Position numbers and translations under genes: made by a program. The notes under the pieces were generated by a model, which had not been told where the DNA came from, ran no database searches, and worked only from the letters and a program-made list of their open reading frames with translations. Shown here one piece after another: positions 1 through 9,129 of a DNA stretch of 9,780 nucleotides (position 1 is its first letter; every line of letters begins with the position of its first letter). This DNA is from a virus. Its lineage: Duplodnaviria > Heunggongvirae > Uroviricota > Caudoviricetes. The stretch is taken from positions 1-9,780 of the IMG/VR virus record IMGVR_UViG_2700989535_000004; one strand, given 5' to 3'.

Positions 1-564
1 TCAACGACTGCGCTTAGCGTGGCGCTCCCAGTTTTCTTGCTTCGCCTGCGCCGTTTTACGTAGTGCGACGTAACACGCCCCGCTGCCGCCATGATGCGGT
101 AGCGCAGTGCAATATGCCTGAACATCATCAAATTCGGTCAGCCAGCGCGCCACATAGCTGCGGACAATATTGGCATGCGATTTATCATCCCGTCCTTTGC
201 CATGAATAATCAGCACGTTACGCAAACCATCAGCCATGGCTTGTTGAATGAAACTGAACATCATTTTGCGGCACTCTTCCACCGGCTGGCGCAAAAGATT
301 CAGGCTCGCCTGTTGCGGATATTTACCACTGCGCAGCTTATCCAGCACCCCATGTTGCAACCCTTCCCGCCGAAACTCCAGCGGCTGACTTAGTGGGATG
401 ATGTCGAGAAATCCGGTGGTGAGGAAATTATCAAGCTGCAGCGTGTCGATACGCTGCGGCGCACGTTGGTTACGCGTTGGATGCCAGTGGACATCGGTAG
501 CACGTTTCAGCGGCTGGACATCTTCCATGGCGTCAAGAAACAGCGATTTGTCGTCAAGGTTCAT
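1..564 (-). CDS. smrA: Smr-domain protein (SmrA/YdaL-like putative DNA endonuclease); host gene flanking the island
   Basis: Complete 187-aa ORF on the minus strand with stop at 1-3. Smr-type core motif (..NVLIIHGKGRDDKS..). The 187-aa length and the MNLDDKSLFLDAMEDV N-terminus match my recollection of E. coli SmrA rather than SmrB; not verified by search. Confidence 0.7.
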   Translation of the reverse strand: MNLDDKSLFLDAMEDVQPLKRATDVHWHPTRNQRAPQRIDTLQLDNFLTTGFLDIIPLSQPLEFRREGLQHGVLDKLRSGKYPQQASLNLLRQPVEECRKMMFSFIQQAMADGLRNVLIIHGKGRDDKSHANIVRSYVARWLTEFDDVQAYCTALPHHGGSGACYVALRKTAQAKQENWERHAKRSR

Positions 565-2261: not shown

Positions 2262-2420
2262 CAGGTTGGTGTGTTGGTGTTATCTTTCCCTTTTTATTCA
2301 TAGAGATAGAGCGAAAAACAAAACCACCACCACCAACCCGAAAAGGCTCATAAATAGCGAAAATCCGCAAGGTCGCCGCCCCGTAGCCTGCCGGATCGCC
2401 GGAAAGGACCCGCCAGCCAG
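2262..2420 (-). other. Lambda-type cos site: cosQ-like flank (2382-2420), cosN (2370-2381) and a divergent cosB-like region (2262-2369)
   Basis: The minus strand reads CTGGCTGGCGGGTCCTTTCCGGCGATCCGGCAGGCTACG|GGGCGGCGACCT|TGCGGATTTTCGCTATTTATGA. The 12-nt block is the lambda cohesive end, and both flanks match the lambda right-end and left-end sequences as I recall them with only a few substitutions. After TATTTATGA the sequence diverges; the cosB-like region carries GGTTGGTGTGTTGGTG (2265-2280) and its inverted partner CCACCACCACCAACC (2324-2338) around an AT-rich core. Confidence 0.8.
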
Positions 2421-4441: not shown

Positions 4442-4864
4442 TTAAAACGGTATATTATCGCCGTACGGATCATCATTCCCCGACTGTTGTTTTGCCCTGT
4501 TCAGTGCGTCAGTGGCCTGCCCCTGCTGACCTTTTTTGCCGCCCGGTCGCGCCGTTCGCGCACTGATTACGCTGTCTGCGATAACCTGCCAGCCCCGCCG
4601 CGTTTCGCCGTTCTGGCCTGTCCACTGGCTTACCTGCATGTTACCCGCCACGCTCAGGAGTTCACCCTTGCGGTGCTTTGCCAGTGCTTCGGCCTGTCTG
4701 CCAAACGCCAGGACGGATAACCACATCGTCGCCGTTCCGTCATCTGCCTGGCTGCACGGAAGTGGGACCGCCATACTCGCCATCGTCATTTGTGTACCCT
4801 TGCTGGTGGTCTTTAACTGCGGGTCAGCCACCAGCCGCCCGTAAGCCGCTATCTGTGCTGTCAT
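4442..4864 (-). CDS. ssb: Single-stranded DNA-binding protein (SSB)
   Basis: 140 aa with an OB-fold-like N-terminal region (IAAYGRLVADPQ.., WLSVLAFGRQAEALAKHRKGELLSVAGNMQVSQWTGQNGETRRGWQVIADSV), a Gly/Gln-rich linker and an acidic tail ending DNIPF (compare SSB DDDIPF). Its ATG (4862-4864) overlaps the upstream stop as ATGA. Confidence 0.85.
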   Translation of the reverse strand: MTAQIAAYGRLVADPQLKTTSKGTQMTMASMAVPLPCSQADDGTATMWLSVLAFGRQAEALAKHRKGELLSVAGNMQVSQWTGQNGETRRGWQVIADSVISARTARPGGKKGQQGQATDALNRAKQQSGNDDPYGDNIPF

Positions 4865-5112
4865 GCTGTCTGCTCTCCGGTTTTAACGTTGATGGTTGTC
4901 ACCTGTTCCGCTTCGGCAATCTCCCGTTCTGTCAGTGTGGCAAAATTTGCCGCCGCCGTGGTCATGAATGCGCTTATCAGTTCGGGATGCGCTTTCGCGT
5001 ATCCTTCTCCGGCGTGGCGGTCTATCGTTCTGATTGCCACCTTTAAGGCGTGCTCTGTCATGTCTAATGCGCGATATTTTGGTGCTGTTTTATCTCTGCT
5101 TTTTCTGGTCAT
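4861..5112 (-). CDS. Hypothetical protein (83 aa), translationally coupled to ssb
   Basis: ATG at 5110-5112 directly abutting the iteron region; G-rich sequence upstream; stop overlaps the ssb start. No family recognised. Confidence 0.5.
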   Translation of the reverse strand: MTRKSRDKTAPKYRALDMTEHALKVAIRTIDRHAGEGYAKAHPELISAFMTTAAANFATLTEREIAEAEQVTTINVKTGEQTA

Positions 5113-5113
5113 T

Positions 5114-5316
5114 CCCCACTACCCCCCACTTTTTCGCCTCACTTTTTAAGCTCCCCACATGATTTCCAACCTTGTTTTTTTGTGATTCTAATATGTTGTT
5201 TTTCAATGTGTTTTTTATTCCTCACTTTTGAGCCTATATACAGATTGAAAAGTGAGGGGCGCGGTTGCTTTTTGTTCAGTTCCTGCTATCCCCTCACTTT
5301 TGCGCCTCACTTTTTA
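5114..5316. repeat. Iteron array flanking an AT-rich core: putative replication origin
   Basis: CC(C/T)CACTTTT(T) copies at 5124-5134, 5137-5147, 5219-5229, 5292-5301 and 5304-5315; partial copies at 5114-5120 and 5153-5160; one inverted copy (AAAAGTGAGGGG, 5247-5258). A T-rich core lies at 5161-5217. The array starts at the stop codon of the replicase gene. Confidence 0.65.
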
Positions 5317-6729
5317 CAGTGGGCGCACATCATCACCGTCAATAGCGATAACGCCGTCTCTTTCCAGCTTGTACAGCCAGCGCCGGAAGTTTTTCATCTC
5401 ATACCCCAGCTTTTTCATATCATCGCGCAACAACGGGATAGTGCATTTATCGCCGCGCTGTGTGCGTGACCGGATACAGCCCCATAGTGCGGCGTGATTC
5501 TCCGTCTTGTTTCCGGCCTCCTCGATGCGCTCCAGTTCAACGGGTGGGCGCGGCTTATCCACAACCACCAGCGACGTGATTAACTCCTTGTCAGCGTCGG
5601 TAAAAAGCTCCACCACACGTAAATCATATGCAGCCTCTTTCAGTTCCTCCGCGTCCTTCATTTTGGTGCAGGAGATAACCAGGGCCTCACTGTCCGCGCC
5701 TTCGCGGCGGATCCGGTACTCAGCGTCCAGAGATGCACGAAATGCACTGGAACCACGCGCCCCTTTTGTTTCATCCTTGCCGGAATGGTGAACCACCAGC
5801 ACCGTGGCCCCTGTGCGTCGTTTCAGTTCGTCACATCCACGGATAAACGCCCCCATATCCCGCGCGTCATTTTCATCATTACCGCCAAAGCAACGCGCCA
5901 GCGTATCCAGAATAATCATGCGTACCGGTTTACCCGTTTCCCGTTCAACCTGGCGGGATGCGATAACCATTTCATCAACATCAAACTGGGCTGCAGGAAA
6001 AATCGGGCGGGTTACCAGGTACAGATTTTTCACCCGTTCATCATTAACGATTTCCCATGCCTTGATACGGCGGGGGACACCAATGCCACCTTCACCGACA
6101 ACATACATCACCGAACCATGCGCCACCCTGCGACCTCCCCAGTGGCGACCCGTGGCAACATGACACGCCCAGGAACACGCGAGGAACGATTTATAGGAAC
6201 CGCTCGCGCCGTATGTGCTGCACAATGAATTAGCCGGAATCACGCCCTTAACGACATAATCAAGCTGTGTGTCGTACCCTGCAGATCCAATGCTCATTGG
6301 TAGCGTGGTTTTTCGCTGACTGTATTGCTCGTCAGTAAGTATTTCCCCGCGCTCTGCCTGTTCGCGGATCCGTTGCAGGTAGTCGTGCCAGTTCTCCAGC
6401 TTCTGACTGTGCATTCCCTCAGGGTAATAATTCGCATCCCGTACACCTGCCGCCGCCAGCTTTTGCCCGATGGCATTAATATTTGACGGCTTGATGTGGC
6501 CTGCCTTGTACAGTCGGACACAATAGCGACCATCGTCGATAATTTTCAGGCCTGCCAGTTCGTCAAGCTGGCTGTCTCCCAGCCATACAGGCGGAACATT
6601 GTCGCCAGCAAGTCGCCCGTCCTGCTCCTGCCATTGTTTCGCGTGCGCCCAGGCATCACTACCCGCAAAAATAATGACTTCGGTCATTTTGTCGTAAGGC
6701 TGTTTTTTTAAGTTCGGTGCGCTTTTCAT
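5314..6729 (-). CDS. Replication initiator, primase/helicase type, with RepA-like AAA_25 ATPase core
   Basis: 471 aa. Walker A-like GASGSYKSFLA (Tyr where Gly is usual), Walker B-like RMIILDT and a VLVVHHSGKDE motif typical of RepA/AAA_25 helicases. The N-terminal 170 aa may be a degenerate Toprim (EVIIFAGSDAW..LKIIDDG) and the C-terminal 100 aa a DNA-binding domain. ATG at 6727-6729 (SD AGGGG, 6-nt spacer) overlaps the upstream stop as ATGA. Confidence 0.8.
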   Translation of the reverse strand: MKSAPNLKKQPYDKMTEVIIFAGSDAWAHAKQWQEQDGRLAGDNVPPVWLGDSQLDELAGLKIIDDGRYCVRLYKAGHIKPSNINAIGQKLAAAGVRDANYYPEGMHSQKLENWHDYLQRIREQAERGEILTDEQYSQRKTTLPMSIGSAGYDTQLDYVVKGVIPANSLCSTYGASGSYKSFLACSWACHVATGRHWGGRRVAHGSVMYVVGEGGIGVPRRIKAWEIVNDERVKNLYLVTRPIFPAAQFDVDEMVIASRQVERETGKPVRMIILDTLARCFGGNDENDARDMGAFIRGCDELKRRTGATVLVVHHSGKDETKGARGSSAFRASLDAEYRIRREGADSEALVISCTKMKDAEELKEAAYDLRVVELFTDADKELITSLVVVDKPRPPVELERIEEAGNKTENHAALWGCIRSRTQRGDKCTIPLLRDDMKKLGYEMKNFRRWLYKLERDGVIAIDGDDVRPL

Positions 6730-7025
6730 TTCTTGCCCCTGAATCCGTTAATCATGGTTTTCAGCTTCTGGATGTTTGCCCGTGCCCTGGCGTTGCTGGT
6801 GGGCACGTTATGCGGCGCGGTCTGTACCAGAGAAAAATCACACCGGAACTGATAAACAGGCATCACGCAATCATATTCGTAACCTTCACGGCGGTAGATT
6901 ACGCGCCGTTCTTCCACGCCCTTAATCATTACCGTGCCGCCGTACTGGTCGCGGTAAATATCACCGCGCGTAAATTTAGGGTGAGTGTTGCCACTGGCAG
7001 TTAAGCCAGAATATTTAAGTTTCAT
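6726..7025 (-). CDS. Hypothetical protein (99 aa)
   Basis: ATG at 7023-7025 with SD GGAGA upstream; stop overlaps the replicase start. Tight operon context; no family recognised. Confidence 0.5.
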   Translation of the reverse strand: MKLKYSGLTASGNTHPKFTRGDIYRDQYGGTVMIKGVEERRVIYRREGYEYDCVMPVYQFRCDFSLVQTAPHNVPTSNARARANIQKLKTMINGFRGKK

Positions 7026-7030
7026 TATTT

Positions 7031-7264
7031 TTATTCTCCGGTGTGCTGTTCTTTATATCTGTCGTGCAATAGATCTATTTCTTGCAGTTCCATTATTACA
7101 GGCTCAAGAAGCGTTATTAATGCCGTGGCAATTCTTGATTTTTGTTTGTCGCATTCATTGTCGCCAAGTGTTTCAAGCCATATGCGCAATATTTCCAGCA
7201 TGTTTTCACTGTGAGAAAGTGCAAGAAATGCGCGGTCTATTGTTTCGTGGTAAATATCACGCAT
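7031..7264 (-). CDS. Hypothetical protein (77 aa)
   Basis: ATG at 7262-7264 with SD GAGGA (about 8-nt spacer); 5-nt gap to the next gene. No family recognised. Confidence 0.45.
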   Translation of the reverse strand: MRDIYHETIDRAFLALSHSENMLEILRIWLETLGDNECDKQKSRIATALITLLEPVIMELQEIDLLHDRYKEQHTGE

Positions 7265-7490
7265 GGCTTACATCCTCAGGAAATTTTCTTCTGTAACGCG
7301 CCTCTGCCACATATTCCGCATAATCGGCGGCGATATTCAGTACATCAAGCCCCGTTGATTTATATTCTCTCGTGGAAAGTAAGAAAAAAGCCGCTCTAAT
7401 AAGCTCTGGCATTGACGAAAGCGCATCAGCCGCATCATCAGGAACGCCGGAAAATTCCTGTTTCAGGGAATTAAAACGATCATCACGCAT
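7257..7490 (-). CDS. Hypothetical protein (77 aa); possibly the C-terminal half of a frameshifted gene
   Basis: ATG at 7488-7490 lies 2 nt downstream of a G9 tract on the coding strand, which could serve as a G-rich SD. The frame is closed 6 codons upstream of the ATG. See finding on the homopolymer. Confidence 0.4.
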   Translation of the reverse strand: MRDDRFNSLKQEFSGVPDDAADALSSMPELIRAAFFLLSTREYKSTGLDVLNIAADYAEYVAEARYRRKFPEDVSHA

Positions 7491-7723
7491 AACCCCCCCC
7501 CATTTTCACAATCAGCAATCAGGATGGCTTTGGCCTCATTCAGCGCCATATCCGCACTAAGTTGCATAACCGCCAGCGAATGAGGAACGAAAGCCCCGGC
7601 ATATTCTGTTTCACTGGTAGCGTGCTTATGCGCCCTGTCCGCGATAACAGAAATATCAATCAGCGCATCAATCAGTGTTTTGATTGCTTCGGCGGCTGCG
7701 TCCGGACGGGTGTTATTGCACAT
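7463..7723 (-). CDS. Hypothetical protein (86 aa); possibly the N-terminal half of a frameshifted gene
   Basis: ATG at 7721-7723 with SD AGGGGGT (5-nt spacer). The reading frame passes through the G9 tract (encoding GGG) and stops 28 nt later, overlapping the next ORF. Confidence 0.4.
   Translation of the reverse strand: MCNNTRPDAAAEAIKTLIDALIDISVIADRAHKHATSETEYAGAFVPHSLAVMQLSADMALNEAKAILIADCENGGGLCVMIVLIP
7493..7501 (-). repeat. Homopolymeric tract: C9 on the plus strand, G9 on the coding strand
   Basis: Read directly (aaCCCCCCCCCatttt). Sits exactly at the junction of two overlapping out-of-frame ORFs. Confidence 0.95.
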
Positions 7724-7919: not shown

Positions 7920-8017
7920 AGCAGCCTCGATAATCTTGCTATCGTTGGTGGTTAGACGCCCCGTATGTGTTTCCGGCACTGCGGGGCGTTGCTCTTTGTA
8001 TTTCAACAATTCTTTTG

Positions 8018-8096
8018 GTGTGTTTCATGTTATGAGCGCATGAAACACACGTCAAGGCTTTTTGTATTTCTTTTTTTGTGTATACTGAAACACACC
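8018..8096. promoter_or_regulatory. Divergent promoter/operator region: perfect 12-bp inverted repeat overlapping a minus-strand sigma70-like promoter, plus a third half-site at the plus-strand promoter
   Basis: GTGTGTTTCATG (8018-8029), 9-bp spacer, CATGAAACACAC (8039-8050). Minus-strand promoter: -35 TTGACG (revcomp of 8050-8055), 17-bp spacer, -10 TAACAT (revcomp of 8027-8032). Third half-site TGAAACACAC at 8086-8095 just downstream of a plus-strand -10-like TATACT (8081-8086). A fourth GTGTTTC lies at 7967-7973 inside a leader hairpin (ACGCCCCG 7956-7963 / CGGGGCGT 7982-7989). Confidence 0.5.
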
Positions 8097-8116
8097 GATG
8101 ATTAGGAGTTTCAGAA

Positions 8117-8422
8117 ATGGCAACGGCTAACAAAAACGCAAAATCACAACTGACAACTGTCAGAGTCCCACTAGATGTTATGCAAGGGATGGAATCCGTT
8201 AAGCTGGACGGCGAAAGCAATGCCGGATTTATCGTAACCGCCATGCGCGGAGAAATAGCCCGCCGCCAAGCAGAAGGCAGCGGAGAAAATCCCCTTGTGT
8301 CGTCACTGGATGCCCTGGCTAAGGTCGAACAAATCGGCATCAAAGCAGCGGAAGAAATCGGGCAGCTTGTCACCGTTGCACGCGAAGAACTCCAGCGTCG
8401 CAAGACCAAAGAACCAGAGTAA
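8117..8422 (+). CDS. Putative ribbon-helix-helix (RHH) DNA-binding protein, 101 aa; candidate island repressor
   Basis: Strong SD (TAGGAG, 8-nt spacer). N-terminal segment QLTTVRVPLDVMQGMESVKLDGESNAGFIVTAMRGEIARR fits a beta-strand/helix/helix RHH pattern. Operator-like repeats lie just upstream and an intrinsic terminator downstream on the same strand. Composition is A/E/K-rich, unlike the Ser/Arg/Cys-rich opposite-strand reading. Confidence 0.6.
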   Translation: MATANKNAKSQLTTVRVPLDVMQGMESVKLDGESNAGFIVTAMRGEIARRQAEGSGENPLVSSLDALAKVEQIGIKAAEEIGQLVTVAREELQRRKTKEPE

Positions 8423-8479
8423 TCACCATCAGCGCCGTGGTGTAAGGTATTACGGCGCATTGCTATGCAGGACAACACA

Positions 8480-8653
8480 ATGACCGATAAAGAATTGACC
8501 AAAACATTATCACCGGCACGGAAAAGACGGCGCAGAAAGATAGAGCATGAATCAGAAAGATTCGCGCCATGTGCTTTTGCTCTTGAGAAATTCCTTAAAG
8601 AGCACAGGAAAAAGCTCTCGTTGCAAACCTTGGAACGAACCAAATCTGACTGA
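8480..8653 (+). CDS. Small basic protein (57 aa), co-transcribed with the RHH gene
   Basis: ATG at 8480 with AGGA 7 nt upstream; the ORF-track start at 8465 has no SD. Contains an RKRRRRK block. Followed 80 bp later by an intrinsic terminator. Confidence 0.4.
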   Translation: MTDKELTKTLSPARKRRRRKIEHESERFAPCAFALEKFLKEHRKKLSLQTLERTKSD

Positions 8654-8732
8654 TCACATTGCCCACCAGCCGCAAATGTGGCATTGTTGGTGATGCTCAT
8701 GCGTTGGGGATAACGTGTAGCTTGTGTCGAGG

Positions 8733-8761
8733 GGCCACCGTAGCGGGTGGCCTTTGTTTTG
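8733..8761 (+). terminator. Rho-independent terminator of the plus-strand cassette
   Basis: GGCCACC (8733-8739), loop gtagcg, GGTGGCC (8746-8752), then TTTGTTTTG. The U-tract is on the plus strand only. Confidence 0.6.
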
Positions 8762-8763
8762 CC

Positions 8764-9129
8764 TGTTATCCGGCAATTGTGGCGCTTCGCCACACGGTTG
8801 ATATAATCCCACTGCTCAGATTCATTTTTTGCGCAGTAGGTTAATTGTTCACAAAGGCGCTCCGGCAACGGGGCGCTTTTTGTTTTTATTAGTTTGTAGA
8901 AACCTGACTCAGAGATAATGCTCATATTCTGATTGCCGTCAGGGGTGTAAGTTAAATTTACTCCCTTTTTATCATCAAACATCTGCAACGCTCTGGCGTT
9001 AACAATATTGGTTTCACTCCCTCCAGTAAGGCCGGAAATAACCGGAATAATTTCGGCAAAATTTTGCAGATTCTGTTTTTCAGGACGAACGAAGCCCCGC
9101 CCTTGTTCGGGAGAATATCCAGTATTCAT
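8764..9129 (-). CDS. Hypothetical protein with a possible Bro-N-like motif; 3' boundary undefined, possibly a truncated remnant
   Basis: ATG at 9127-9129 with only a weak SD. The segment PDGNQNMSIISESGFYKLIKTKSAP resembles the Bro-N core (GGKQ.MT.INESGLYSLI..S.KP), but the N-terminal Bro-N signature is not evident. The ORF formally continues without a stop to 7939, across the plus-strand terminator, cassette and promoter region; I list only the 5' part, ended at an arbitrary in-frame position. Confidence 0.3.

Follow-up and report, generated by a model that had tools for sequence, protein, structure and literature searches.

A probable replication origin in an EcCICFT073-family phage-inducible chromosomal island and covariation of its iterons with residue 447 of the RepA-family Rep protein

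Described replicons and the element analysed

RepA of plasmid RSF1010 (IncQ) is a helicase only, and the iterons of the plasmid are recognised by a separate protein, RepC. In satellite phage P4 priming, helicase and a C-terminal winged-helix origin-binding domain are combined in one protein, alpha, which binds short repeats; P4 also needs a second, distant repeat cluster (crr). EcCICFT073 is the prototype Gram-negative phage-inducible chromosomal island (PICI). Its cloned rep gene with the adjacent origin sustains a temperature-sensitive plasmid, and deletion of rep or of the origin abolishes or reduces plasmid maintenance (Fillol-Salom et al. 2018, PMC6092414). According to the same study, PICIs have their origin directly 3' of the initiator gene, and in those of E. 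coli it always contains two iteron sets flanking an AT-rich region (PMC6092414). The Rep proteins of the SaPIs are self-loading helicases in which a C-terminal winged helix recognises iterons located immediately downstream of rep, with an AT-rich centre (PMC9371898). Since the position of the origin after rep is textbook knowledge for PICIs and SaPIs, the finding reported here mainly annotates the element correctly; that position was known already, and the new part is the correspondence between residue 447 of Rep and one base of the iteron.

The window is the whole stretch of 9,780 nucleotides that was analysed (IMG/VR record IMGVR_UViG_2700989535_000004). It is 99.97% identical to, and collinear with, the sequence of E. 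coli KSC1031, where the element is about 9.6 kb long and lies between smrA and abgR. The genes of the element are, in order, integrase, alpA-like, icd-like, small ORFs, DUF4222, rep, an 83-aa ORF and SSB, followed by homologues of major capsid protein E and decoration protein D, an HTH protein and a terS-like protein. EcCICFT073 (NC_004431.1, 1377749-1389210) has its genes in the same order as the window and shares with it blocks of 80-92% DNA identity. A unidirectional gene order, a size of about 10 kb and a specific chromosomal site, as in EcCICFT073-type PICIs, were all found. This comparison identifies the window as a Gram-negative PICI of the EcCICFT073 family, with smrA and abgR on either side of the insertion. 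In a published PICI catalogue EcCIEC2733.1 occupies the same lysR-smrA site. A PDB sequence search with the terS-like ORF (1694-2248) gave no match to RppC of EcCIEC2733.1, so that the shared insertion site is the one link by which the two elements can be identified with each other. The region 5000-5420 was matched in 986 of 5426 complete E. coli genomes, and relatives of the replicon were found across the Enterobacterales, including an apparently capsid-forming satellite recorded as a plasmid; the replicon type is a common one.

Several other features of the window were recorded. Positions 1-564 (-) are the chromosomal gene smrA, and the right end of the element is therefore placed within ~565-1330. 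A search of the window for the published att core of the lysR-smrA PICI, ACATTATTAATATCGTGA, gave no match with up to 2 mismatches allowed. A helper-type cos sequence, the lambda-type GGGCGGCGACCTTGCGGATTTT, is present at 2360-2381 (-). It departs from the lambda-type query at 2 positions, chance would give 0 matches, and on this sequence match it is probably the packaging site of the element. The cos core lies between an AlpA-like gene (2438-2821) and the terS-like ORF (1694-2248). This gene (2438-2821, -) is the second AlpA-like gene, located in the late region beside cos, and its product is a 127-aa HTH protein with a match to an AlpA-family phage regulatory protein of solved structure (8c3t, E 1.6e-10). 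At 7939-9129 (-) there is a 396-aa ORF with an ATG start and no Pfam match, which is unannotated in the identical RefSeq record. It has weak PHROG matches to anti-repressors (Ant) over residues ~50-84 only, and its C-terminal two thirds are rich in Ser, Cys and Arg and resemble the antisense translation of a ylcI/ynfO-like gene (8116-8421, +).

The repeat array between rep and the next ORF

All genes in this part of the window are on the minus strand. The gap 5113-5313 (201 bp) contains six exact copies of CCYCACTTTT, five direct copies on the plus strand at 5124, 5137, 5220, 5292 and 5305 and one inverted copy on the minus strand at 5248-5257, together with degenerate copies at 5114-5123 and 5155-5162. 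A first-pass annotation, made from the sequence alone, had reported at least five direct copies and one inverted copy of CC(C/T)CACTTTT, starting at the replicase stop codon and flanking a T-rich core. The count proved to be exactly five and one, the two degenerate copies having gone unlisted. Iteron 1 (5305-5314, -; AAAAGTGAGG on the coding strand) overlaps the TAA stop codon of rep (5314-5316), as had been stated for the start of the array. It is followed on the coding strand by iteron 2, a second AAAAGTGAGG (5292-5301, -), and after 30 nt by iteron 3, in inverted orientation (5248-5257, +). Iterons 2 and 3 together make a perfect inverted repeat of 12 bp, and iteron 3 also makes a palindrome with iteron 4, the direct copy AAAAGTGAGG at 5220-5229 (-). 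Between iterons 3 and 4 lies the centre TGTATATA (5235-5242, -), which is conserved in relatives.

The next ~55 nt (5164-5219, neither strand assigned) are an AT-rich spacer with 70-80% A+T in 20-nt windows, which is T-rich on the plus strand and lies between the iteron groups, where the T-rich core had been described; it is the proposed melting region. Beyond the spacer are the degenerate copy ATGTGGGG (5155-5162, -), iteron 5, AAAAGTGAGG (5137-5146, -), iteron 6, the G-type variant AAAAGTGGGG (5124-5133, -), and the degenerate iteron 7, GGTAGTGGGG (5114-5123, -), the coding strand reading GTAGTGGGG into the ATG of the next ORF at 5112. Iterons 1 to 6 were located as exact repeat matches, the other two as degenerate matches. 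Because iteron 1 overlaps the rep stop and the last copy adjoins the next ATG, the repeats fill the whole intergenic gap. The ORF directly downstream (4861-5112, -; 83 aa) was identified by ORF search and by its match to phrog_1231, and the gene after it (4442-4864, -) encodes the SSB of the replication module (Pfam SSB, E 9.7e-16; RefSeq annotation). Many short repeats in a compact non-coding stretch beside an initiator gene, next to an AT-rich region that would be able to unwind, are the features of an iteron origin.

Two comparative sets were used, the first with 79 usable loci of other Enterobacterales (Rep 51-71% identical over residues ~136-471) and the second with 80 closer relatives (62-100% identity); statistics on origin anatomy were taken from 99 non-identical origins. 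In nearly all relatives the 200 bp after the Rep stop hold four to ten copies of the AAGTG-NGG type at the offsets and in the orientations found in the window: direct at ~+3, +16 and +25 from the stop, inverted at +57, direct at +88, then the AT-rich gap, and direct again at ~+145 to +195. The inverted copy at ~+57 is conserved in the 99 distinct origins. The distance from its core to the next direct core is 24 or 26 nt in 83/99, and a YRTATAYA-like motif is present at the centre of this inverted/direct pair in 92/99. In A+T content the spacers have a median of 0.70 and whole loci one of 0.50, the spacer value being the higher of the two in 98/99; the sequence of the spacer is not conserved.

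CCYCACTTTT with up to 1 mismatch was matched 7 times against a shuffle mean of 1.46, and 7 matches were reached in 0 of 200 shuffles. The core AGTGRGG had 11 matches in the window against a shuffle mean of 1.41, and 7 of the 11 fell inside 5114-5311, which is about 2% of the window; the scan of the whole window for this core gave no second iteron cluster. The region is rich in A/T and in homopolymers, in which short motifs recur easily, and the array might have arisen by chance or from low complexity, or be left over from a local duplication, and have no function. The shuffle counts speak against this explanation. So does the fact that the repeats keep their position, number and orientation all the way from E. 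coli to Xenorhabdus, Pectobacterium, Pantoea and Morganella in spite of diverging spacers, and the explanation was considered extremely improbable.

We infer that 5113-5313 is very probably the vegetative replication origin of this EcCICFT073-family PICI, at which Rep would bind, melt the DNA and load the helicase. Shown directly by computation are the repeats, which are conserved and vary in concert, as well as their covariation with residue 447, the fold predicted for Rep and the limits of the cassette. In the proposed mechanism the C-terminal winged helix of Rep would bind the AAAAGTG(A/G)GG iterons, and the base at position 4 of the GTGNGG core would be read by residue 447, at the start of the recognition helix. 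Binding to the left group (two direct copies and the inverted/direct pair around TGTATATA) and to the right group (three to four direct copies) would give rise to Rep oligomers, whereupon the AT-rich spacer would melt and the RecA-fold helicase would be loaded. The SSB encoded by the element two genes downstream would belong to the same replication module. The first-pass reading of the region as a PICI/SaPI-style origin beside its initiator is supported by the synteny with EcCICFT073 and by the conserved array after Rep homologues, and further by the winged helix predicted at the C-terminus of Rep and the covariation with residue 447, the likeness to SaPIs being one of analogy.

Other signals were sought in and near the gap. 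No DnaA box was found in 5113-5313, and the count over the window was not above chance; a perfect DnaA box, TTATCCACA, is present at 5555-5563 (+), within the rep coding region and ~240 bp from the origin. The IHF consensus gave a single match with 1 mismatch at 5189-5201, which is not above chance. Single-strand folding of the gap was not significant (z -1.3), the sole notable pairing being the inverted repeat of iterons 2 and 3. The scan of 4800-5600 for promoters and terminators, sigma-70-like promoters included, found nothing.

Iterons in plasmids commonly also have control roles. The repeats could be Rep-binding sites used mainly for control, whether by autoregulation, by control of read-through into the downstream operon or by copy-number and incompatibility control through handcuffing, and the origin would then lie elsewhere. 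The array extends from the rep stop to the next start codon, so that Rep bound there would cross the path of transcripts into the 83-aa ORF, SSB and capsid genes, and the covariation described below bears on binding specificity, not on origin activity. A control-only role was nevertheless judged unlikely because the AT-rich spacer between the iteron groups is conserved and because EcCICFT073, an element of this family, sets a precedent in that its corresponding region is required for full plasmid maintenance (PMC6092414). The single iteron cluster in the window and the negative promoter and terminator scan of 4800-5600 also argue against it.

Rep and the exchange of the replicon cassette

The rep gene (5314-6729, -) encodes a protein of 471 aa for which ORF search, Pfam, Foldseek and AlphaFold2 give an N-terminal domain, a helicase of RepA/AAA_25 type with RecA fold and a predicted C-terminal winged helix. 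Residues 152-320 match Pfam AAA_25 (PF13481) with E 2.5e-44 and 151.7 bits, above the gathering cut-off of 27. The RefSeq name is 'helicase RepA family protein', and phrog_2850 is matched over the full length. When Rep was searched against PDB sequences (E <= 1) the only solved relative was RSF1010 RepA (PDB 1g8y; E 0.016, residues 153-325). Neither a SaPI Rep chain nor similarity to any solved P4 chain was found at this threshold, and no SaPI Rep chain was among the best 50 Foldseek matches. The AlphaFold2 model of full-length Rep had a mean pLDDT of 65.6, with the helicase core weak in parts. Its best Foldseek matches were T7 gp4, RAD51/RadA and DnaB, which suggest a RecA-fold helicase rather than a SaPI-type AAA+ protein.

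The locus resembles the SaPIs in its short iterons directly after rep, in the AT-rich centre between the iteron groups and in having some iterons in opposite directions, and a predicted C-terminal winged helix is likewise combined with an origin immediately 3' of rep. The helicase core, in contrast, was matched to Pfam AAA_25, RSF1010 RepA, T7 gp4, RAD51/RadA and DnaB, and not to SaPI Rep: SaPI Reps belong to the AAA+ superfamily III clade, whereas Rep of the window is of the RecA-fold AAA_25/RepA type. Rep is not homologous to the SaPI Reps, and the resemblance is therefore one of architecture and not of descent. RSF1010/IncQ RepA is of the same Pfam family, AAA_25, but in Rep of the window the helicase is fused to its own, predicted, DNA-binding domain. 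P4 alpha with ori/crr is similar as the replicon of an enterobacterial satellite with a single replication protein, and the P4 helicase is of a different superfamily. The helicase class of Rep differs from that of the PICI and SaPI initiators that have been studied.

The C-terminal domain, residues 401-471 (5317-5529, -), is the proposed iteron-binding domain and was modelled by AlphaFold2 as a winged helix-turn-helix with helices at 410-425, 431-440 and 448-457 and a beta hairpin at 461-470. The pLDDT was 88-94 in the full model and ~95 when the domain was modelled alone. Foldseek aligned it with the winged helices of a LexA-DNA complex, DtxR/IdeR, MepR and DnaD-N at TM 0.6-0.69 and probabilities of 0.97-0.99, with E-values not significant alone (best 0.065); values of only ~0.07 or higher are attributable to the size of the domain, 76 residues. 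A profile of the domain gave nothing significant against PDB sequences, and BLASTP against the LexA DNA-binding domain gave no alignment. A weak local alignment placed Asn447 on LexA Asn41 (score 32, reached by 9 of 500 shuffles). LexA Asn41 makes a base-discriminating contact to an operator adenine (PMC5999292). Homologues of the helicase core are common in phages, and in the collections searched the helicase joined to this C-terminal domain was essentially confined to satellite-like loci. Iteron binding by the C-terminal domain, which the first-pass annotation had predicted, is supported indirectly by computation, through the concerted change of the copies, the covariation of the variable base with residue 447 and the predicted fold. 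In the origin explanation, which as a whole was given high confidence, Rep would be a self-loading initiator-helicase.

The N-terminal domain, residues 1-131 (6337-6729, -), was recognised by sequence match as common to Rep and the Pri-Rep of EcCICFT073. It shares 61% identity with residues 1-134 (L003:5242-5643) of the EcCICFT073 protein, which has 584 aa, and matches part of phrog_864 'DNA primase'; this shared module could be a docking or priming domain. Beyond residue 131 the two proteins are unrelated, the 584-aa initiator of EcCICFT073 being of the 'DNA primase family' as against the 471-aa RepA/AAA_25 helicase with a winged helix in the window. The two elements agree in family, in gene order, in the location of the origin in the gap after rep and before the 83-85-aa ORF and SSB, and in having iterons in two groups and in both orientations. 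They differ in the iterons themselves, which are GGTAGAYA in EcCICFT073 (gap L003:6997-7284, both orientations) and AAAAGTGRGG in the window; the module that was tested experimentally is that of EcCICFT073, with an initiator and iterons different from those of the window. An N-terminal domain that both elements have in common, although their iterons are unrelated, is unlikely to be what sets iteron specificity.

The limits of the exchange were located with blastn against EcCICFT073, in which 6376-7545 (85%) and 4536-5073 (80%) aligned and the stretch separating them did not. DNA homology ends at 6375 and resumes at 5073, and therefore the exchanged unit (5074-6375, -) covers Rep residues ~119-471 and the origin and takes in the first 13 codons of the next ORF. 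The breakpoints bracket exactly the helicase, the C-terminal domain and the origin, and on this alignment a cassette of these three parts has replaced that of EcCICFT073. The exchange bears also on an explanation of the repeats as operator or promoter elements for another regulator, for example an AlpA-like one, that would switch on the downstream morphogenesis and interference genes. The array is intergenic and directly upstream of a gene block, and the element encodes AlpA-family helix-turn-helix proteins. The repeats, however, were exchanged with the helicase and C-terminal domain of Rep only, the variable iteron base tracks a residue of Rep and not of another protein (see below), and a sigma-70-like promoter was not found in 4800-5600; an operator of this kind was considered very unlikely.

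Residue 447 and the variable base of the iteron

Within one origin all copies share the variant of their lineage, which is GTGAGG, GTGGGG, GTGGGC, GTGGGGG or GTGCGGC; the origin of the window itself is mixed. The group of the window and Xenorhabdus have GTGAGG, and other E. coli elements have GTGGGG or GTGGGC; Pectobacterium, Serratia and Morganella have GTGGGGG, and Kosakonia, Leclercia, Phytobacter and Enterobacter have GTGCGGC. Such concerted change of the copies is expected of binding sites of one specific protein.

The iteron type was compared with the Rep alignment column by column. The proposed specificity residue is Asn447, with its codon at 5389-5391 (-; GTT on the plus strand, AAC on the coding strand). 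In the AlphaFold2 model it is directly before helix 3 (448-457), at the N-terminus of the predicted recognition helix. The pairing of Asn447 with GTGAGG was seen in 31 of 31 distinct sequences; for GTGGGG/GTGGGC the residue was His or Lys, and for GTGCGG it was Ser. The mutual information between residue 447 and iteron type was 1.33 of 1.50 bits, the best of 332 alignment columns, the next reaching 1.03, and there was no variation at K446 or R450. A neighbour-joining tree built on the helicase backbone required 22 changes of the residue, 22 of the base and 23 of the two combined (approximate counts), from which it follows that residue and base switch together, repeatedly, on near-identical backbones. 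Rep of one relative (L088) differs from that of the window at 11 residues, and in the C-terminal domain the differences are confined to N447H and R457G. The iterons of L088 from +18 to +186 are GTGGGG where those of the window are GTGAGG, and its last copy (+196) is GTGAGG. Residue 457 has no association with iteron type. A first specificity scan with four iteron classes had given only five class-specific positions, with 445 and 447 in the C-terminal domain, and was superseded by the analysis of 332 columns.

The covariation is inflated by physical linkage, because codon 447 is only ~75 bp from iteron 1 and recombination co-transfers both. Neighbouring columns were also informative (0.79-0.80 against 0.98 bits in a subset of 44 sequences). 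The stronger argument is that four to ten dispersed copies change in concert, for which linkage alone does not account. The repeats could also be a packaging site, that is, cos or pac accessory repeats recognised by the small terminase or an Rpp protein. Lambda cosB also has repeated protein-binding sites. A TerS-like protein is encoded here, and the element family is packaged from cos sites (PMC6739421). The repeats, however, covary with Rep, and since the lambda-type cos GGGCGGCGACCTTGCGGATTTT is separate, beside the terS-like gene, the array is not taken to be the packaging site; this explanation was given hardly any weight.

In the origin of the window GTGGGG is present at 5114-5123, 5124-5133 and 5155-5162 and GTGAGG in the other five copies, with Asn447 in Rep. 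Because of these five GTGAGG and three GTGGGG copies with one residue, a rule of one residue and one base is not absolute. The origin of another relative (L103) has GTGAGG copies only. The mixed origin of the window may be a recombinant, or the three positions may tolerate either base.

With about even confidence we propose that a single residue at the start of the recognition helix sets the iteron variant required (Asn447 with A, His or Lys with G, Ser with C), and that exchange or mutation of a short cassette of C-terminal domain and origin, on helicase backbones that are otherwise near-identical, would split satellites into replicon specificity groups with no cross-reaction between them. 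If true, this would amount to a simple, rewritable code for recognition of an origin by its initiator. The covariation offers a hypothesis for how satellite replicons gain distinct origin specificities that is testable by one mutation, and it has a bearing on the co-residence and incompatibility of satellites and on orthogonal small replicons. Among satellites that share one genome, the cases seen gave a mixed picture as to whether their iteron types differ.

Two further observations were made on the relatives. The circular 16,971-bp Klebsiella pneumoniae 'plasmid' pKp_Goe_795-4 (L164, CP018459.1) carries a Rep homologue with iterons and encodes integrase, capsid, head-tail adaptor, terminase and a tape-measure-annotated protein. 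This gene content suggests a satellite that forms capsids and was assembled as a circle, and not a plasmid. The residue equivalent to 447 is Ser, and the iterons are AAGTGCGGCA. In three loci from Xenorhabdus and a MAG (L008, L017 and L026) repeats of the AAATGAGG type are present instead of AAGTGAGG with the same VKNFS signature in Rep, and these may be a further iteron variant, at another position of the core.
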